DNA of 32,000 bases from Candidatus Harpocratesius repetitus (lineage in GTDB: Archaea > Asgardarchaeota > Lokiarchaeia > Sigyniarchaeales > Promethearchaeaceae), in NCBI GenBank assembly GCA_021498095.1, contig JAIZWK010000001.1, positions 3,030,001-3,062,000 on the forward strand, written 5' to 3'. Under the pieces are notes generated by a model. It ran no database searches. It was not told where the DNA came from and saw nothing but the letters and a program-made list of their open reading frames with translations. This document shows positions 12,121-23,391 of this stretch, piece by piece. Position 1 is the first letter of the stretch, and every line of letters begins with the position of its first letter. Made by a program: the position numbers and the translations under genes.

Positions 12121-12210
12121 ATGCCCGCGTCTGAAACATCTATTCTTATTTCTATATCAACGGAGTTGTTTAAGATCATCTCAGGCGCTATTATTCAAAT
12201 TATCGCATAA
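12121..12210 (+). CDS. Putative Ile-rich leader peptide of ileS (MPASETSILISISTELFKIISGAIIQIIA)
   Basis: ATG...TAA, 29 aa, 9 Ile including three Ile-Ile pairs, 292 nt upstream of ileS on the same strand. Confidence 0.7.
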   Translation: MPASETSILISISTELFKIISGAIIQIIA

Positions 12211-12502: not shown

Positions 12503-15500
12503 ATGAAAATATTTGAGGAAAAAACAATGAAACCCTTAGGAAATCTAAATTTACTAAAAATTGAAGAAGATATATTAGAATGGTGGGAGAAACAGAAAAT
12601 CTATGAAAAAATAAAAGCTCAAGAACCAGCTGATGAAGAAAAAACTTTTAGATTTATTGATGGCCCACCATATACTACAGGTGATGTCCATTTAGGCACT
12701 GCATGGAATAAAATAATGAAAGATCTTGTCATTAAATATAAAAGAATGCAAGGATTTCGTGTAACTGATACTCCTGGTTATGACACTCATGGTTTACCAA
12801 TTGAAGTTGTAACAGAAAAGAAATTGGGAATTAAAAATAAGCAAGAGATTAAGACGTTTGGATTGGATAAGTTTATTTCAGAATGCAGAGCTTATGCTGA
12901 AAGTAAAATTCCCAGTATGAATGAACAATTCAAGCGTCTTGGTTGCACTTTCTGGGACTGGGATAATCCTTATGTAACATTAAAAAATACATATATTCAA
13001 GGTATCTGGTGGACTCTTAAACGTGCATGGGAAAATGGGTATTTATACAAATTCTATAAACCCCAAAACTGCTGTCCACGATGTGCAACTGCTTTAGCCA
13101 AACATGAATATGAATATCATGATATTACTGATACAGCTATTTTTGTCAAATTTCAATCAGTTGATGATCCTAAAACGTTTTTCATTATTTGGACTACAAC
13201 ACCTTGGACCTTAATCAGCAATACAAATATTATGGCCAACCCAGATGTTGAATATGTCAAAATGCGTGTAAAAGACGAATACTGGATAATGGCAATTGCA
13301 GCTACTTCAGATCTCCTCCAAAATAAATTAGGATTGGTAGTAAATGCAGAAGAGGGTTTTTCATATGGAGAACGTTATACTGGACGCGATCTTGAAGGAA
13401 AACGCTATATTCATCCTTTTGCAGATTTAATACCAAAACAATTAGAATTAGAAAAAGAACAACCATTAGTTCACACAATCATCCTTTCTCACGAATATGT
13501 CCAAGAAACTGGGGGAAGTGGGTTAGTTCACACTGCACCTGGACACGGTCCTGAAGATTTCGAAGTTGGTGTTTCCTATAATATACCGATTTATTCACCA
13601 GTCGCTATGGATGGAACTTATACGAACGATGCAGGAGAATACTTTAAAGGTAAGTATGTGCATGATGCAAATCACGAAATCATTGAAATGCTCCGCAAAC
13701 GGGGAACATTAGTTCATGAAGATTCAATTTCACATGAATATGCACATTGTTGGCGCTGTCATACTAAACTCGTATATAGAGCCACCGAGCAATGGTTTTT
13801 CAAGACATCAGCACTGCGAGATGAAATGTTAAAAGAAAATGATGAAATATTTTGGATACCTGAGTATGCAGGTGCCACAAATTTCAAATCATGGTTAACC
13901 AGTTTACAAGATTGGTGTATTTCACGACAACGATACTGGGGAATTCCCCTCTCAATTTGGACCTGTGAAAATCCAGAATGTGATAATATGCATGTAATTG
14001 GTTCAATGGAAGAATTACGAGAAATCGCAGGAACTTGTCCTGAAGATATCCACAAACCTTGGATTGACGAAGTTACATGGAAATGTGATAAATGTGGAAT
14101 GAAGATGACCCGTATTCCAGATGTTATGGATGTTTGGCTTGATTCTGGATCGGTAATGTGGGCGTCACATAAATTTGTTGATGGGCATGAACATTATGAT
14201 TCATGGGTTCCCGCAGATTTTATTCTTGAAGGAAAAGATCAAATCCGAGGTTGGTTTAACTCTTTATTATGTAGTGCTATGGTCTCTACTAAGAAGAGAA
14301 ATTACAACGTTTGCTATATGCACGGATGGGTAACTAGTCATGGAACGAAAATGTCTAAATCTTTAGGAAATGCCTTAGACCCACAAGATGTCATTAATGG
14401 AAATATAGAAATTTTAACAGAAAAACAAAAAGAATATTTACGAGAATTGGCAGCGGATGAACGTACGTCTAAATTCGATAAAACAAAACAAAAATCAAGT
14501 AAAAACAAGAAACACTGGAAACCAAAATATATAAAAGATGATAGACGCTGGTCAATGATTAAAGGAATTGAAACATTCAGATTTTATTCAGTAATGGGCA
14601 CTCCCCCGGGAAAAGATTTAAATTTTGATTACAAAGAATATACAGATACGTTTAAAGTCTTAAATACAATTTGGAATACATTTAAATTTGCCCAAGAAAA
14701 AATGAAATTAAATGACTTTCATCCTAAGACACATTTGATCAAAAAAGATGAACTTTCTGCAGCAGATAAATGGATTCTGGCTCGAACAAATAGTTTGATT
14801 CGTACAATAACGGATTATTTTGAAAAATTTGAATTACCATCAATTCCTGCTACTTTACAAAATTTCATATTAAATGATCTCTCTCGCTGGTACATCACCA
14901 TTATACGAGATCAAGTTGAACCATCAAATAAAGATCCTTCAAAATACACCACTTTGGCAGTACTTTGGCATGTATTATATCGTGTGCTACTATTACTTGC
15001 TCCGGTTAATCCAATGTTGAGTGAAGAGATCTATCAAAAAATATTTCGTTCAGAATTATCAGATCAGTTAAAACTCTCAATTCATTTAGAACAATGGCCA
15101 AAACCATCACTTGAATACGATAATCATGAAATTGAAGAAGAAATGGCGACTGCTCGTAGAATAATTGATGAAGTGCGTTCATTAAAATCTGAACATAAAA
15201 TAAAACTTCGCTGGCCTACAAAGGGATTAATTATCGTTCCTAAAAATGACAACCCTAAACCTTCATTCCCACAATTGATTCAAGAAATGAGTAATGTAAA
15301 GCAAATAAAAATCAGAAAAACTCACCCGAAAAATCCAGATTATTTATCCACAGAATGGGGAGAGTACGCAATTTATTTGGATTTAGAAGAATCAGAAGAA
15401 ATTCAACAAGAGCGAATTTTACGAGATTTGCTTCGAACTATTCAATTTCTCCGTAAAAATGCAAAATTACAAACAGGAGAATCCATTGAACTTCACTTAA

Positions 15501-15787
15501 GCACAAAACATCCTTTTCTTTTAAAAACGATAAAAGATAATGCTGAAGCAATTAAAATAAAGGTCACAGCGAATCCGATGGATTTTTCACCTGTATCAAA
15601 CCCTAATCTTGATAATTGGACCCGCCATGGTTTCAATGTCTGCTTAAATGAGAATTGCTATTCAGTAGTTAGAGATAAAAACGTTCAAGCAATCCATAAA
15701 GGAGAAAGTTATAAGTGCAGCTATTGTGGTAAATTAGTTACCCTAGAAAAATTGGGTGAAATTCAGATTGAATTTAAAAAGAATTAA
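12503..15787 (+). CDS. ileS: Isoleucyl-tRNA synthetase, archaeal/eukaryal type
   Basis: DGPPYTTGDVHLGT (HIGH), GYDTHGLPIE, WTTTPWTL, GSGLVHTAPGHG, DWCISRQRYWG, EGKDQIRGWF, KMSKS. The start may be ATG 12527, which is preceded by TGAGG. Confidence 0.97.
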   Translation: MKIFEEKTMKPLGNLNLLKIEEDILEWWEKQKIYEKIKAQEPADEEKTFRFIDGPPYTTGDVHLGTAWNKIMKDLVIKYKRMQGFRVTDTPGYDTHGLPIEVVTEKKLGIKNKQEIKTFGLDKFISECRAYAESKIPSMNEQFKRLGCTFWDWDNPYVTLKNTYIQGIWWTLKRAWENGYLYKFYKPQNCCPRCATALAKHEYEYHDITDTAIFVKFQSVDDPKTFFIIWTTTPWTLISNTNIMANPDVEYVKMRVKDEYWIMAIAATSDLLQNKLGLVVNAEEGFSYGERYTGRDLEGKRYIHPFADLIPKQLELEKEQPLVHTIILSHEYVQETGGSGLVHTAPGHGPEDFEVGVSYNIPIYSPVAMDGTYTNDAGEYFKGKYVHDANHEIIEMLRKRGTLVHEDSISHEYAHCWRCHTKLVYRATEQWFFKTSALRDEMLKENDEIFWIPEYAGATNFKSWLTSLQDWCISRQRYWGIPLSIWTCENPECDNMHVIGSMEELREIAGTCPEDIHKPWIDEVTWKCDKCGMKMTRIPDVMDVWLDSGSVMWASHKFVDGHEHYDSWVPADFILEGKDQIRGWFNSLLCSAMVSTKKRNYNVCYMHGWVTSHGTKMSKSLGNALDPQDVINGNIEILTEKQKEYLRELAADERTSKFDKTKQKSSKNKKHWKPKYIKDDRRWSMIKGIETFRFYSVMGTPPGKDLNFDYKEYTDTFKVLNTIWNTFKFAQEKMKLNDFHPKTHLIKKDELSAADKWILARTNSLIRTITDYFEKFELPSIPATLQNFILNDLSRWYITIIRDQVEPSNKDPSKYTTLAVLWHVLYRVLLLLAPVNPMLSEEIYQKIFRSELSDQLKLSIHLEQWPKPSLEYDNHEIEEEMATARRIIDEVRSLKSEHKIKLRWPTKGLIIVPKNDNPKPSFPQLIQEMSNVKQIKIRKTHPKNPDYLSTEWGEYAIYLDLEESEEIQQERILRDLLRTIQFLRKNAKLQTGESIELHLSTKHPFLLKTIKDNAEAIKIKVTANPMDFSPVSNPNLDNWTRHGFNVCLNENCYSVVRDKNVQAIHKGESYKCSYCGKLVTLEKLGEIQIEFKKN

Positions 15788-18567: not shown

Positions 18568-18777
18568 TCATGTTATGTAAAGTGCTCGGCGAGGACATGC
18601 ATCTAAACATAACATACATCCTTTACAATTTTCAGCTTTGAATAAAAACGAATAATTGTTGTCAAAACTCAATGCTCCGAATCTACAGTACGATGTACAC
18701 CAACCACATTCAACACATAAGTCTTTATTAAACTGTATCGATTTTTTGTTGATTTGTGCTGAGTTCATATTATGCAT
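18568..18777 (-). CDS. 2x[4Fe-4S] ferredoxin, MA1822-like partner of the homocysteine synthase
   Basis: CVECGWCTSYC and CKGCMLCLDACP motifs. Its start overlaps the stop of the COG1900 gene, with GGAGG upstream. Confidence 0.85.
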   Translation of the reverse strand: MHNMNSAQINKKSIQFNKDLCVECGWCTSYCRFGALSFDNNYSFLFKAENCKGCMLCLDACPRRALYIT

Positions 18778-19894
18778 CCTCCAATTGATAAGTTTTAAAA
18801 CTTTGTTTTATTGACAAATTCTGGATGGGTTTGATAATTGGAATTCTTTTTTCTTCAACCATTTTTTTTAATAATCTTGTAATAATACGGGCTTTCCTAT
18901 AGGATGAAGTGGATGAAACAGGGACAATCTTTCCATCTATCTCAATTTGTCTTGATTTTAACTCAGCATAAGACACACTACGAATTAAAGGGCGTTCTCT
19001 TTTTCCTGTAGAATAATCTAAAACATTAGTAAATATTTCACTATCAGGTGTACCGCTTGTTCTTGCTAGAGATTCATTCAAAATAGGAATTGGAATACCT
19101 AATCCAATAAAGCAACTATATCCATAACCCTTTAAAAATGCACCTGCAAGAAATTCTGGAGTCATTTTCTTTAAATCCCCTGATACCATTAAATTACCCC
19201 ATTCTGATTCAGGATTATGTTGAGTTCCAGAACCGATGATATGTCCAACCGTACCACCTAAAAAAACAGGAGTTCCAATTCCTATTGTTTGATAAGTTGG
19301 ATCATTGTTTAATGGAGATAATGTGCCTACACCTCCATATGTACCATTTTGATACTTGGGAAGAAGTTTCCCCATATAAGTATACAATATTTCACCAGAT
19401 GAATTAACTGCACAAATATATTTTTGATATGCATTACGGGGATTGATCATTATTGCTTGATTAAAATCTTGAAGCCCTAAAGAAACATCAAATGATTTTC
19501 GAGGATAGCAATCAGTTCCAGTCCCTGTAGAGTGAATTGACACATTTTCTCCTTTGACCAGTTTTTCGAGAACGTGACCCCCACCAACTTTATCAAAAAC
19601 TCGACTACCTTGAGTTACACCTAAATAACAATCAGCTGCAGCATTTCCATGATACGCATTTACTCCATCAATTTCAATAGTTTCAATTTTGATTGGTGGA
19701 TCAGGCTGTGGTAAATTAAAGAATACACCGCTTGAACACATACAACCAAATGTTCCAGTGGTAACAACATCTACGGCTTCTGCAGCATATTCCACTCCTT
19801 CTTTCTCAACCAATGAAACCATTTCTTCTGCTGTTAATATTACTGCAGTCCCATCATGAATTTTTGAATTAATATCTTCATATGTTTTCTCCAA
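18770..19894 (-). CDS. L-aspartate-semialdehyde sulfurtransferase / homocysteine biosynthesis protein (COG1900/DUF39, MA1821/MJ0100-type), without CBS domains
   Basis: KTYEDINSKI..GTAVILTAEEM, VDVVTTGTFGCMCSSG, NPRNAYQ, SPLNNDP..TIGIGT.VFLGG. TTG start preceded by GGAGG. Confidence 0.9.
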   Translation of the reverse strand: MEKTYEDINSKIHDGTAVILTAEEMVSLVEKEGVEYAAEAVDVVTTGTFGCMCSSGVFFNLPQPDPPIKIETIEIDGVNAYHGNAAADCYLGVTQGSRVFDKVGGGHVLEKLVKGENVSIHSTGTGTDCYPRKSFDVSLGLQDFNQAIMINPRNAYQKYICAVNSSGEILYTYMGKLLPKYQNGTYGGVGTLSPLNNDPTYQTIGIGTPVFLGGTVGHIIGSGTQHNPESEWGNLMVSGDLKKMTPEFLAGAFLKGYGYSCFIGLGIPIPILNESLARTSGTPDSEIFTNVLDYSTGKRERPLIRSVSYAELKSRQIEIDGKIVPVSSTSSYRKARIITRLLKKMVEEKRIPIIKPIQNLSIKQSFKTYQLEDA

Positions 19895-19896
19895 TT

Positions 19897-21381
19897 TTAT
19901 TCCTCCGTTTTCTTTTTTGCATAACCATCTTTATTGCACTCATCAGAAAATATTAGATTTATTTCATTTGCAACTATTGGAATAAATTCACGATTAAGAA
20001 CTATCGAAACAGTTATTCCATTATAATCTTGCAAAATTCCATGAATTTGTATTCCATGCTTTTTTAAAATTTGTCCAATCTTTGAAACAATTTCAGCTTG
20101 GTAAAAAGATTCAGTTATGATTGTAATGATTCCAACTGATTCTATGCTAATTTTTAACCATTCCCTTTGTATCTGTGATTTATAACAAAATTCTTCCAAT
20201 TTTTTTCTGATATTTGAATCTTTAGAGCATAATAATAACCTATTTTGAGAAAATGTTTGCTGAAAGAGTGAAATATGCCAATTTTTTTTAATGAAATATG
20301 AAAATAATTCCATTAGGAATGTTGATTCTTGGAATAGAAATGGGGATTTGAGAATTATTAAGTAAGAAGACTTTGTTATTTCAATCCCTTTTATAGGAAT
20401 TTCCATGCTTTGTGATGAAATATAGGTAAAATTTGAACTCTTTGGTTTATGAAAATGACGTATTTCAATGGGAATCATTTGATCTTCAATAATGCTTATA
20501 CATTTTGGATGTAGAATTTTAGCTCCAAGAACTGCAATTTCTTTTGCTTCTTTATAATTGAGTTTTTGAATTAAATGTGGATCTTGAATATATTCAGGAT
20601 TACCAGAAAGTACACCAGGAACATCTTTCCAAAGGATAATTCTTCCCTCGTGAAAGAGATTCAAGTCAAATAGCATACGACCAATGATGGTAGCTGTAAA
20701 ATCACTTCCACCCCTTCCTAATGTAGTGGTATAGCCAATTTTATTTCGACCAATAAAACCTGTGATTACAATAACTTGATGATTTCGATTATTTAAGAGT
20801 AATGGAAGTAATTTTTGGTTAATACGAGCTTGCGTGTGTTGAAGATTAGGAATTGCCTTATTATATTCGCTGTTTGTAATGATTAATTCTTCACCAAAAA
20901 ATACTGATGAAGTAAAGTTTTCTTGTTTTAAATATAAATTAACCAAAGTAGCGCAAAGTTTTTCACCAAACGACATTACATAATCGATAAAATAAGGAAT
21001 TATTCCAAATTCTTCCACTTCTTCTAAAACTTTTGCAAGCTGATGTAATATAAGTTGGAGTTCTCCTTTGGCACTGTTAGTTACCTTAAAATTCTCTTCA
21101 AATAATAAATCAATGTACTCTTCATGAATTTCTTCGATTTGTTTTAAACGAGAAATTACATCATGTCCAGATCCTTTACTCGCTAAATTGGTTACTTCAA
21201 TTAATAAGTCGGTTACTCCTTTCAATGCTGAAACTACTAAAATAATAGAAATAGGAATGCTATTTTGTTGATAGTATGTCCGAATAATGCTTTTAATCTG
21301 CTTAAAATCAGAAGGTTCAGTTAAACACGACCCACCAAATTTCATAATAAATACTTTATTAGGATTTTCTTGTTCATTCAT
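19897..21381 (-). CDS. ask: Aspartate kinase with C-terminal ACT-like region
   Basis: MKFGGS, VVSALKGVTDLL, SFGEKL, TTLGRGGSDFTA, WKDVPGV. The start overlaps the asd stop (ATGA), with AGGAGG upstream. Confidence 0.92.
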   Translation of the reverse strand: MNEQENPNKVFIMKFGGSCLTEPSDFKQIKSIIRTYYQQNSIPISIILVVSALKGVTDLLIEVTNLASKGSGHDVISRLKQIEEIHEEYIDLLFEENFKVTNSAKGELQLILHQLAKVLEEVEEFGIIPYFIDYVMSFGEKLCATLVNLYLKQENFTSSVFFGEELIITNSEYNKAIPNLQHTQARINQKLLPLLLNNRNHQVIVITGFIGRNKIGYTTTLGRGGSDFTATIIGRMLFDLNLFHEGRIILWKDVPGVLSGNPEYIQDPHLIQKLNYKEAKEIAVLGAKILHPKCISIIEDQMIPIEIRHFHKPKSSNFTYISSQSMEIPIKGIEITKSSYLIILKSPFLFQESTFLMELFSYFIKKNWHISLFQQTFSQNRLLLCSKDSNIRKKLEEFCYKSQIQREWLKISIESVGIITIITESFYQAEIVSKIGQILKKHGIQIHGILQDYNGITVSIVLNREFIPIVANEINLIFSDECNKDGYAKKKTEE

Positions 21382-22583
21382 TGATTTTTCCTCCTAATAA
21401 TTCCTTTAGCATAAAGATATTCTGCATTAAGAACTGCACCTCTCCCTGCACCCAATTCAGTATTATGAGATAAAACGGTCATTTTAAAACCTTTTTCAAA
21501 GTTTGTGGGTTCTAATCCACCAATAAATGTAGTCATACCAAGAGATCGATCTACTAATTCTATTCTGGGCTGAGGTCTATCTCTTTCAGCAGATGAAAAG
21601 AGATGGATGGGTACTTTGGGATAATTGGGAAGATTCATACCATTAATTGTGTTTCCTTCCTTATTTTGATTAAAATCATCAAAACATTGCCGAATTTCTT
21701 CTTCGGAACAGTCAATTTTTGTTTGGAAAAATATTGATAATAAATGACCCTCTAAAACAGGAACCCGATTACATTTAGAGTCAATTTTAAATTCTGGATA
21801 AATAAAAATCGATTTTTCTGAAATACTATTTATTTTTTCCTGAAATCCATCTTTACTTATTTTTGCAAATATTTTTTTTATTTCATAATTGACTTTCTTT
21901 TCTTCTTCAGGAATATAAGGAATAATATTGCCGATTATATCATAAGCACTCACACCAGCATATCCTGCTCCACTAATTGCTTGCATTGAAACAACATTCA
22001 CAGATTGTAATCCAAATTTACGAAAAATTGGATATAACGCAATAGCAAGACCAACAGTAGTACAATTTGGACCAGGACAAACAAATCCTCGAGAATTGTT
22101 GATATATCTTTGGATTTCAAATGCTTGGAAGTGAGATCCATTAATAATAGGAAGAAATATTGGAATTTCTGGTTTATAACGCGCCCATGATGCAGTTGAA
22201 AACACAGGATAGTTTTGAGCTAACAAGGGTTCGAGTTCTGCTGCATATTCTGAAGGAATTGCAGAAAAAATTATATCTATTTCTTCTTTATTTATGTCAT
22301 CTGGTGATTTTACAATCATCTCAGCAATTTCTTTTGGCAAATATAGATTTGAAGTACCTCTTCGACCATATTTATATTTTTTTCCTACTGTTCCAAAACC
22401 ATGAAGTGAAGAAATTTGAAACCAAGGATGTTTAACTAAAGCTTCGACTATAGATTGCCCAACTAATCCAGTACAACCTATTATTGCAGCTTTCAACTTT
22501 TGCTTAGGATTTAAAGTTATAGTTACTAAAGGATTTTCTTCTTTCATATTTTCTGGATTTTTATTTTTATTTTCTTGATTCAT
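21378..22583 (-). CDS. asd: Aspartate-semialdehyde dehydrogenase, archaeal/fungal type
   Basis: IIGCTGLVGQ, PNCTT (catalytic Cys), SMQAISGAG, RVPVLEGH, SHNTELGA (catalytic His). Confidence 0.95.
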   Translation of the reverse strand: MNQENKNKNPENMKEENPLVTITLNPKQKLKAAIIGCTGLVGQSIVEALVKHPWFQISSLHGFGTVGKKYKYGRRGTSNLYLPKEIAEMIVKSPDDINKEEIDIIFSAIPSEYAAELEPLLAQNYPVFSTASWARYKPEIPIFLPIINGSHFQAFEIQRYINNSRGFVCPGPNCTTVGLAIALYPIFRKFGLQSVNVVSMQAISGAGYAGVSAYDIIGNIIPYIPEEEKKVNYEIKKIFAKISKDGFQEKINSISEKSIFIYPEFKIDSKCNRVPVLEGHLLSIFFQTKIDCSEEEIRQCFDDFNQNKEGNTINGMNLPNYPKVPIHLFSSAERDRPQPRIELVDRSLGMTTFIGGLEPTNFEKGFKMTVLSHNTELGAGRGAVLNAEYLYAKGIIRRKNQ

Positions 22584-22590
22584 TGTTATT

Positions 22591-22599
22591 TCTCCTTCT
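22591..22599 (-). promoter_or_regulatory. Shine-Dalgarno-like site of asd (AGAAGGAGA)
   Basis: Purine-rich GGAG 7 nt upstream of the asd ATG. Confidence 0.65.
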
Positions 22600-22630
22600 A
22601 TTTGTAATGTTTTTTAATTCTATAATGTTT

Positions 22631-22804
22631 TTCTGAAATCAAAATGCTATCGATTCATTTCAGAACTTAATACTTGTTCCAAAATTATGTTTATAGAGAT
22701 AATCTAATGGAAATGCACAGAAAATTGATTCTATCGCCCAGTTCTCATCGGCGATACTTTCTGTGTTCAAGCACAATCACAAAAGAAGAGAGAGCGATCG
22801 AATC
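22631..22804 (-). promoter_or_regulatory. Putative attenuator with mutually exclusive helices between the Met leader and asd
   Basis: Segment 22792-804 pairs with 22727-39 (12 of 13 positions). This competes with the hairpin 22750-56/22732-38 plus 22758-65/22716-23. A separate 9-bp hairpin lies at 22657-65/22631-39. Confidence 0.7.
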
Positions 22805-22812
22805 TTGTTTAC

Positions 22813-22896
22813 TTATGCCATTACCATTAACATGGACATCATCATCATGGTCGATGGCATCTGAGACATCATTTGCATATCCCACATGCTTCCCAT
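22813..22896 (-). CDS. Putative Met-rich leader peptide (MGSMWDMQMMSQMPSTMMMMSMLMVMA) of the asd-ask-homocysteine operon
   Basis: 27 aa with 13 ATG codons including a run of four, ending 229 nt upstream of asd on the same strand. An in-frame upstream ATG at 22932 would give 39 aa. Confidence 0.85.
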   Translation of the reverse strand: MGSMWDMQMMSQMPSTMMMMSMLMVMA

Positions 22897-23052
22897 GATT
22901 GTTTCTAGGTAAACATTAGAATCGAATCGCATTCTTATTTATTTTGTATAAAGCATACTTTAAGAAATTATTGATGGAAATAAAATATGATAAATTTTAG
23001 TTAAACGTCAATATTTCAAATGTCAAAATAACATTACTAAATAAATGATCGC

Positions 23053-23391
23053 TTAACCACCACCAATCGGAGGAAATATTGCCACAACCGATGGATTCTC
23101 TTCAATTCGAGTTGCAAGTGCTAATTCTGAAAATAGAATGCGGCCGTTTAAAATAATTTTAACATACTTTTTTAACTGTTCAGGTTGAGTTGAAAAATCA
23201 ATTATTTCTTCTAAAAATTCCCGATTATAGAGAATTGATTGTGAAATCTCATCTAACAACTCTCTTATCGTGATTCCTTTTGAAACAGAATAAATACGTT
23301 TTTTGAATTTTGTCAATGGGCGTAGATTTGCAAAAACTCGAACTTCGACTGAAACTCTTTCACTTATTTCTTCATCTACTTTAGAATCCAT
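23053..23391 (-). CDS. moaD: MoaD/ThiS/SAMP ubiquitin-like sulfur carrier
   Basis: VEVRVFANLR beta-grasp start, ILNGR, and C-terminal VAIFPPIGGG. Confidence 0.85.
   Translation of the reverse strand: MDSKVDEEISERVSVEVRVFANLRPLTKFKKRIYSVSKGITIRELLDEISQSILYNREFLEEIIDFSTQPEQLKKYVKIILNGRILFSELALATRIEENPSVVAIFPPIGGG

Follow-up and report, generated by a model that had tools for sequence, protein, structure and literature searches.

Conserved competing RNA helices around a methionine-rich leader open reading frame: a candidate ribosome-read switch upstream of the asd operon in an Asgard archaeon

The window analyzed here is a stretch of 32,000 nucleotides (nt) from Candidatus Harpocratesius repetitus (contig JAIZWK010000001.1, positions 3,030,001 to 3,062,000), a Promethearchaeota member whose genome is a single contig of 4.36 Mb with a G+C content of 30.6%. 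On the minus strand of the window a short open reading frame (ORF) rich in methionine codons, hereafter the Met leader, is followed by an operon of three genes: asd, the aspartate kinase gene ask, and a gene for a HcyBio homocysteine sulfur-incorporation enzyme (Table 1). With this gene content the operon leads to aspartate semialdehyde and to homocysteine, from which methionine is made. Three RNA segments surround the Met leader, here called P0, P1, and P2, and P1 is able to pair with either of the other two. An earlier annotation made from the nucleotide letters alone (the sequence-only reading) had described two mutually exclusive structures behind the leader stop codon, states A and B, and had proposed that a ribosome on the leader decides between them. 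Our analysis supports this in part: the conserved switch is real, its architecture is unlike the one proposed, and the toggle is unproven. All positions below are those of the window unless stated otherwise.

Table 1 Features of the asd leader region, with positions in the window.
Feature	Position	Strand	Remarks
Met leader ORF	22813..22932	minus	39 codons, 14 Met, TAA stop
P0, 5' arm of the fold-back helix	22909..22935	minus	covers leader AUG and codons 1-8
P1, toggling segment	22790..22812	minus	starts immediately 3' of the stop; partners P0 or P2; core AUCGC
Pyrimidine tract (CUCUCUCUUCUUUU plus GUGAU)	22776..22793	minus	buried in state A, otherwise pairs with the asd Shine-Dalgarno region
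5' strands of B1 and B2	22750..22765	minus	
P2, alternative partner of P1	22727..22739	minus	A1 3' strand and B2 3' strand; core GCGAU
B1 3' strand	22716..22725	minus	
9-bp hairpin UUCUGAAAU/AUUUCAGAA	22631..22665	minus	arms 22665-22657/22639-22631, 9 of 9 pairs
asd ribosome-binding region	22591..22608	minus	AGAAGGAGA 8 nt before the ATG at 22583, plus AUUACAAA; partner of the tract
TATA-like box TTCTTAAAG	22958..22966	minus	26-34 nt 5' of leader AUG
ThiS-like gene	23391-23053	minus	first in the local gene order, 5' of the leader ORF
Spacer		minus	229 nt between leader ORF and asd
Operon asd-aspartate kinase-HcyBio	22583..18770	minus	Pfam matches
asd	22583-21378	minus	Pfam PF01118/PF02774
Aspartate kinase (ask)	21381-19897	minus	Pfam PF00696
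HcyBio/COG1900 homocysteine sulfur-incorporation enzyme	19894-18770	minus	Pfam PF01837

The Met leader has methionine at positions 1, 13, 16, 19, 21, 22, 25, 29-32, 34, 36, and 38, a bias with a binomial probability of 3.8e-15 that ranks it second by amino-acid bias among 6803 intergenic short ORFs (sORFs). The sORF ranked first (14 Cys in 30 amino acids; genome positions 2078663-2078869, minus strand) was considered as a cysteine leader and rejected as an artefact, as it lies antisense to a Q/A-rich frame which by eye, without a family search, resembles a small PDCD5-like gene; the Met leader is thereby the top genuine match. AUG triplets are distributed as 14/1/0 over the three frames of this leader, and 67 are in frame against 4 off frame when all seven related loci described below are counted, including a doubtful one (L027). 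Judged by its sequence the leader is probably translated. Its start had been placed at 22896 in a companion note, but the frame opens at 22932. The internal Met codons 13-38 all sit between P0 and P1, outside both pairing segments.

The TATA-like box upstream of the leader presumably acts as its promoter, and from its position the 5' untranslated region (UTR) should be just a few nt, making the leader ORF near-leaderless. The identical motif is found at an equal distance from the leader AUG in a relative (G002), the remaining loci have TTTTTAAA or TTTTATATA boxes 24-38 nt 5' of the leader AUG, and no Shine-Dalgarno (SD) motif precedes the leader AUG in the loci inspected. An SD motif at -18 to -4 is found in 13-21% of long ORFs genome-wide compared to 3% in a control window, and most genes of this genome may be leaderless. 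The 16S rRNA of the genome ends with GGAUCACCUCCU at its 3' end. The strong SD of asd is therefore a minority feature, and one that is expected when a gene is read from a long 5' UTR.

When the minus strand was read again, every helix quoted in the sequence-only reading was found at its place: A1 (22804-22792 with 22739-22727) with 12 of 13 pairs, A2 with 6 of 7, A3 with 7 of 7 if G-U pairs are counted, B1 with 8 of 8, B2 with 7 of 7, and a separate hairpin further downstream with all 9. States A and B do exclude each other, since strands are common to both. Alternative helices thus really exist between the Met leader and asd-ask-HcyBio; what had been overlooked is the best-conserved partner, P0, at the other end of the leader. 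Leader plus spacer fold at -98.1 kcal/mol (z = -5.5), and the minimum free energy fold holds state B together with two long-range helices, one formed by P0 and P1 (P0:P1) and one between the pyrimidine tract and the SD region of asd (tract:SD). The P0:P1 duplex of approximately 18-21 bp has an energy of -22.2 kcal/mol, is significant in dinucleotide shuffles (p = 0.0005), and belongs to the top 0.4% in strength among 8887 intergenic sORFs of this genome. P1:P2, which is the A1 helix, gave p = 0.0125 in the same kind of test, and both P1 pairings are this strong in only 17 of 8885 sORFs, nearly all of these inside rRNA operons. P1 thus has two possible partners (P0 and P2), as has P2 (P1 and the B2 strand), and no partner for P0 inside the ORF was found in the Met leaders.

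The B hairpin is also unusually stable on its own (-18.6 kcal/mol, z = -3.9, matched by none of 200 shuffles), and in the isolated post-stop segment state B at -28.2 kcal/mol is favored by 3 kcal/mol over state A at -25.1 kcal/mol. Helix A3 is absent from every predicted fold, where GUGAU/AUCGC and UGUG/CACA form the interior of state A in its place. A bacterial-type scan for a hairpin followed by a U run returned no terminator site in 22400-23150, where U4 runs are the longest, and comparison with Rfam 15 at E values up to 10 gave four chance-level matches only, far below the gathering scores.

A DNA search for relatives of the locus gave only one close homologue, and others were added by fetching asd orthologues. 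Met-rich leaders precede asd in the source genome, in G002 and G001 of the same genus (g1), and, for a second genus (g6), in two genomes and one metagenome contig. We count these as six distinct Met-rich leaders from two Promethearchaeota genera, with L027 as a seventh, doubtful locus that is set aside. Among approximately 111 asd loci, an sORF with at least 4 Met per 20 amino acids was found at 8 loci of the close orthologue group only, a number that includes one near-duplicate contig and L027, and asd orthologues fused or joined to dapA-dapB were without a convincing leader. A metagenome scan with a single asd protein gave no match, and one with an asd alignment gave two close loci only, one of them new (L054). 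For the leader peptide, a 48-residue extended version gave no match as a protein query, and a profile of five leaders searched against 1.84 billion proteins gave one match, identical to the leader of G012.

In each of the five loci with flanking sequence the genes after the Met leader are asd-ask, while the upstream neighbor varies by genus (ThiS-like or ferritin-like), which we take as evidence that leader and asd move together. A length of exactly 39 codons and the start AUGCGAU are shared by five of the six leaders, and Met 13, 22, and 25 are common to both genera. P0:P1 energies range from -17.7 to -27.6 kcal/mol over the loci, and P1:P2 energies from -22.3 to -28.3 kcal/mol with P2 located 48-82 nt past the stop. 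In all seven loci the two helices use identical P1 nucleotides around an invariant AUCGC/GCGAU core. The distal helix sequences are wholly lineage-specific and yet complementary: GUAAACA/UGUUUAC in the present genome, UUAAGGAAUC/GAUUCUUUAA in G002, GGAAGCAAUCGC/GCGAUUGUUUCC in G001, and UCGGA...UCAAAUCGC/GCGAUUUGA...UCCGA in g6, within which single changes preserve a wobble pair or repair a mismatch. The number of sequences was too small for formal covariation statistics, and since MAFFT misaligns P2 between the genera and one bulge shifts the P0:P1 register, we relied on duplexes and dinucleotide shuffles for each locus. These gave p values of 0.0005-0.08 for P0:P1 and 0.0005-0.0125 for P1:P2, the latter being 0.0005-0.0045 in all six related loci, and RNAalifold on the seven sequences returned P0:P1 as the consensus long-range helix. 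By these comparisons, both genera have kept the outer helix of state A through compensating changes. The inner helices A2 and A3, the helices of state B, and tract:SD are not conserved in the relatives, and a conserved B-type partner for P2 was significant in two g6 loci only.

Two other origins of the repeats can be addressed at this point. Transposon-like inverted repeats were rejected, because only two copies of the module are present per genome and the synteny with asd is conserved. It is also very improbable that the GCGAT/ATCGC repeats have no RNA function and are either DNA operator sites for a repressor or chance complementarity in an A+T-rich spacer: the 5-nt core is sequence-invariant across genera and P0 overlaps the presumed transcription start, a usual place for an archaeal repressor, but core invariance is also what a three-way pairing constraint predicts, the complementarity runs 13-20 bp beyond the core with distal parts that differ between lineages and still pair, the shuffle tests are significant in each locus, and P1 and P2 are internal to the transcript, approximately 135 and 195 nt from its start.

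The behavior of the competing helices was analyzed by folding nascent RNAs, i.e., transcripts ending before the asd SD, in which ribosome positions were modelled as masks. Free nascent RNA folded into P0:P1 plus state B, and a footprint on the run of four methionine codons (MMMM) left the same structure (P = 0.92-0.96, with A1 at no more than 0.03). Masking the stop codon plus 13 nt gave state B. Masking P0 alone flipped the predicted fold to A1 (P = 0.5-0.73). Over the loci, masking P0 or the whole ORF moved P1 to P2 in most cases, and a footprint on codons 24-33 left the predicted fold unchanged. In these models, then, the element would read the occupancy of the leader 5' end rather than a ribosome at the stop codon or on the methionine run.

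How the choice made by P1 could reach asd is suggested by the pyrimidine tract. Its helix with the SD region (22793-22776 with 22608-22591, 17 bp, interrupted) appears in every full-length fold, and the duplex energy of -17.0 kcal/mol, which ranks in the top 3.4% among 2787 gene starts, was reached by 8 of 1000 and 5 of 500 shuffles. The partner of the SD is the tract after the stop, and the Met codon tract itself is not paired with it. SD accessibility was 0.38 in the free fold, 0.65 when P0:P1 was forced, and 0.93 when P1:P2 was forced. The output at this locus is probably SD masking.

Taken together, the results lead us to favor, at slightly less than an even chance, a cis-acting methionine sensor at the 5' end of the asd-ask-HcyBio mRNA which is read by ribosomes in the form of queuing or occupancy, with a sign that is uncertain. 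The transcript would begin a few nt before the 39-codon ORF with its 14 AUG codons, and P1 would choose between the near-isoenergetic P0 and P2, the latter approximately 75 nt downstream. When methionine is plentiful, ribosomes would clear P0, the P0:P1 fold-back would close the start of the leader, and P2 would fold locally into state B; this would leave the tract free to pair with the SD region of asd and turn the operon off. When Met-tRNA is scarce, ribosomes may queue from the Met codons back to the start and cover P0, whereupon P1 would pair with P2 (state A), the tract would be buried, and the ribosome-binding site of asd would be open, with the operon on. Such a queue fits the fixed length of 39 codons, which corresponds to approximately four footprints, the way in which the Met codons are spread out, and the position of Met 13 one footprint from the start, and it likewise fits the absence of a leader SD, the TATA-like boxes 24-38 nt upstream, and the strong SD of asd.

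Several observations weigh against this reading. The full-length RNA folded into B plus tract:SD with P of at least 0.98 under every mask, so the equilibrium fold does not switch and any switch must be kinetic; we infer that control acts on the nascent RNA. Even there the flip is limited: in a transcript ending 12 nt past P2, P1:P2 reached only 0.01-0.14 at this locus when P0 or the entire ORF was masked, owing to competition by B, and state A at 0.5-0.73 was obtained only in transcript lengths that allow the helix to be extended by the 3' end of the ORF. Tract:SD is just moderately unusual (p about 0.01-0.03) and missing from the other six loci, which also show no change in SD accessibility between the states. 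Since the helix and the accessibility shift are confined to this locus, SD masking may not be the conserved output. In all loci A-rich TATA-like stretches are present 20-35 nt 5' of the asd start, making a separate asd promoter possible, and the G001 leader has no Met before codon 31.

Further information about the sign of the switch came from a second leader in the window. An Ile-rich sORF at 12121-12210 (plus strand; 9 Ile in 29 amino acids) precedes ileS (12503-15787), and it has the same fold-back from the start to the region after the stop as the Met leader (-22.4 kcal/mol). The fold-back is conserved before ileS in G002 (L144) and G010 (L145), i.e., in two genera, which supports amino-acid sensing by leaders in this family. 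The ileS leaders differ from the Met leaders in their cores (GCGUCUG/CAGACGC), in their length of 28-29 codons, and in having an extra P0 partner within the ORF, a segment just 5' of the Ile run; U6-U7 runs are found before ileS. The additional partner also speaks against the sign preferred above, as a ribosome stalled on the Ile run would free P0 and favor P0:P1.

It is therefore possible, although unlikely, that the sensor is the same and its sign or output is different, so that a ribosome stalled on the Met codons leaves P0 and P1 both free to form P0:P1 (starved, on), and run-through with re-loading of the start gives P1:P2 (off), with termination at a U-rich stretch after P1 or P2 as the output (by archaeal oligo-U or factor-dependent polarity) in place of SD masking. 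The folding results agree with such a sign, as a footprint on MMMM or on codons 24-33 gave P0:P1 here and in the G001 and g6 loci, and in the ileS leaders the partner beside the Ile run makes P0:P1 the natural stalled state. SD masking is moreover not conserved, and termination would agree with the conserved U6-U7 runs before ileS and with a CUCY-UUUU(U) tract 3-11 nt after P1 in all g1 copies of the module, including the paralogue described below. Against this, at the present locus the tract becomes available for masking the asd SD in the P0:P1 state, the terminator scan was negative, U4-U5 runs are expected by chance in a spacer of 30% G+C, and the U tract is located upstream of P2, so that P1:P2 cannot decide termination there.

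A pattern search revealed a paralogue of the module (G000:C1 1076854-1076973, minus strand; L176:6355-6474, minus strand; G002 homologue L158:1315-1434, plus strand), and nhmmer found just two module copies in this genome. The paralogue has 39 codons, the MRF start, the GCGAU/AUCGC/GCGAU cores, and a CUCC-UUUU tract after P1, and it ends with FIWY. It lacks the richness in Met, and the next gene downstream, approximately 870 nt away, encodes a 133-residue protein without a Pfam match; the low Met content and the distance both weigh against a methionine sensor acting on a following operon. These properties suit instead an autonomous family of sORFs or small RNAs whose ends fold back and which do not control asd, asd having its own promoter and the Met-rich peptide having, e.g., a metal- or oxidant-binding role. 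We consider this a shade less likely than a sensor of opposite sign. The TATA-like boxes before asd would provide the promoter, and closure of the start codon in this way is reminiscent of fold-back inhibition in hok-type mRNAs. However, the Met version stays before asd-ask in two genera despite the different upstream genes, and the conservation of P2 means that RNAs reaching well past the sORF are under selection. At the peptide level Met richness persists while the Met positions vary, and it is the P0 pairing that determines the N-terminal residues. A strong SD such as that of asd, moreover, is typical of an internal or long-UTR start.

The attenuator as originally described, where a ribosome at the stop codon gives state B (off) and stalling at MMMM gives state A (on), now appears improbable. 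Both states exist, exclude each other, and differ by just 3 kcal/mol, and masking the stop plus 13 nt does give B; the free RNA gives B as well, however. Stalling at MMMM did not favor A in our folds, where the footprint left P0:P1 plus B. Nor did a switch from A to B appear in the constrained folds of the full-length RNA, although it was expected in the sequence-only reading, which had itself named a single dominating structure as the outcome against it; at equilibrium B plus tract:SD was obtained under every constraint. What is conserved is P0:P1 rather than the B helices or A2/A3, of which A3 is never even predicted. Finally, the comparison that had been drawn with the classical 2:3 versus 3:4 logic does not hold, as there is no terminator hairpin and the Met codons are outside the pairing segments.

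The sensor that we favor, read through queuing or occupancy, has partial counterparts in known systems. As in the bacterial attenuators trpL, hisL, thrL, leuL, pheL, and ilvL, a short ORF rich in codons for the end product precedes a biosynthetic operon, and the choice between mutually exclusive helices is set by the position of a ribosome. Ribosome-mediated attenuation of this kind needs coupled transcription and translation. The present element differs from these attenuators in its archaeal host and in the amino acid, methionine, and also in its design: the regulatory codons are outside the pairing segments, the first segment is the start region of the leader itself, the fold-back also closes translation of the leader, and a G+C-rich terminator hairpin with a U run is missing. 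We know of no methionine leader peptide of the attenuator type, and a full-text literature search found neither a described methionine leader peptide nor an archaeal leader-peptide attenuator.

The nearest analogue is the polycysteine attenuators of mycobacteria, leaderless sORFs that exert translational control via SD masking, which is relieved by a stalled ribosome (bioRxiv 10.1101/834739). Both elements are leaderless or nearly so, are the first cistron, and are rich in codons for one amino acid. They differ in that the Cys codon tract itself pairs with the SD in mycobacteria, whereas here the pyrimidine tract after the stop does so; furthermore, the competition is three-way here (P0, P1, and P2), and SD masking is seen in this locus only. 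In hok-type mRNAs of type I toxins the extreme 5' end pairs 3' of the ORF and closes the start, so that translation occurs on nascent or remodelled RNA only. The fold-back is alike, but the Met leader is followed by a biosynthetic operon and has a high content of the cognate amino acid, and neither an antitoxin RNA nor a toxin-like peptide was seen.

Somewhat more tentatively still, we propose that Promethearchaeota use leader-peptide attenuation, which to our knowledge has been described in bacteria only, in a form where the start region of a near-leaderless sORF of fixed length folds back onto the segment behind its stop and a ribosome traffic jam at hungry Met codons is read instead of a single stall, and that it serves at least Met (asd-ask-HcyBio) and Ile (ileS). 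If this is true, the logic of attenuation exists outside bacteria, in the Asgard archaea that are the closest prokaryotic relatives of eukaryotes, and methionine joins the amino acids sensed by leader-peptide attenuation; it would also give access to translation initiation, to ribosome queuing, and to termination in organisms whose cultivation is very difficult. The fold-back closing the start codon of the leader itself is an unusual design. In a crude genome-wide scan for fold-backs only the Met and Ile leaders fit such a system, and the other sORFs with strong fold-backs precede unrelated genes (a ferredoxin-domain protein, Oxidored_q6, PFOR beta, RIO2, a CDP-alcohol transferase, and FtsX).

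Some minor observations were made in the course of the comparisons. Locus L027 of G010 was doubtful as a Met leader, as its sORF (oriented 1225-1338), located before asd-dapA-dapB, contains only 6 Met and includes a KKK run. This sORF retains the AUCGC/GCGAU segment pair and may be related to the leader, either as a diverged form or as one connected with lysine; no leader precedes the second asd of G010. No asd relative was found at E values up to 1e-30 in G011 and G013 (both g6) and in G016, one of which is a closed genome of 4.3 Mb, and the aspartate-semialdehyde route may be missing in these organisms. The 9-bp hairpin of the spacer is present in every fold and thus constitutive (z = -2.6, matched by 2 of 200 shuffles), and by eye G002 has a shorter CUGAAA/UUUCAG hairpin at a comparable place. 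The ThiS-family protein encoded directly 5' of the Met leader, an arrangement seen in g1 only, ends with GGG and could be the sulfur carrier for the HcyBio step.

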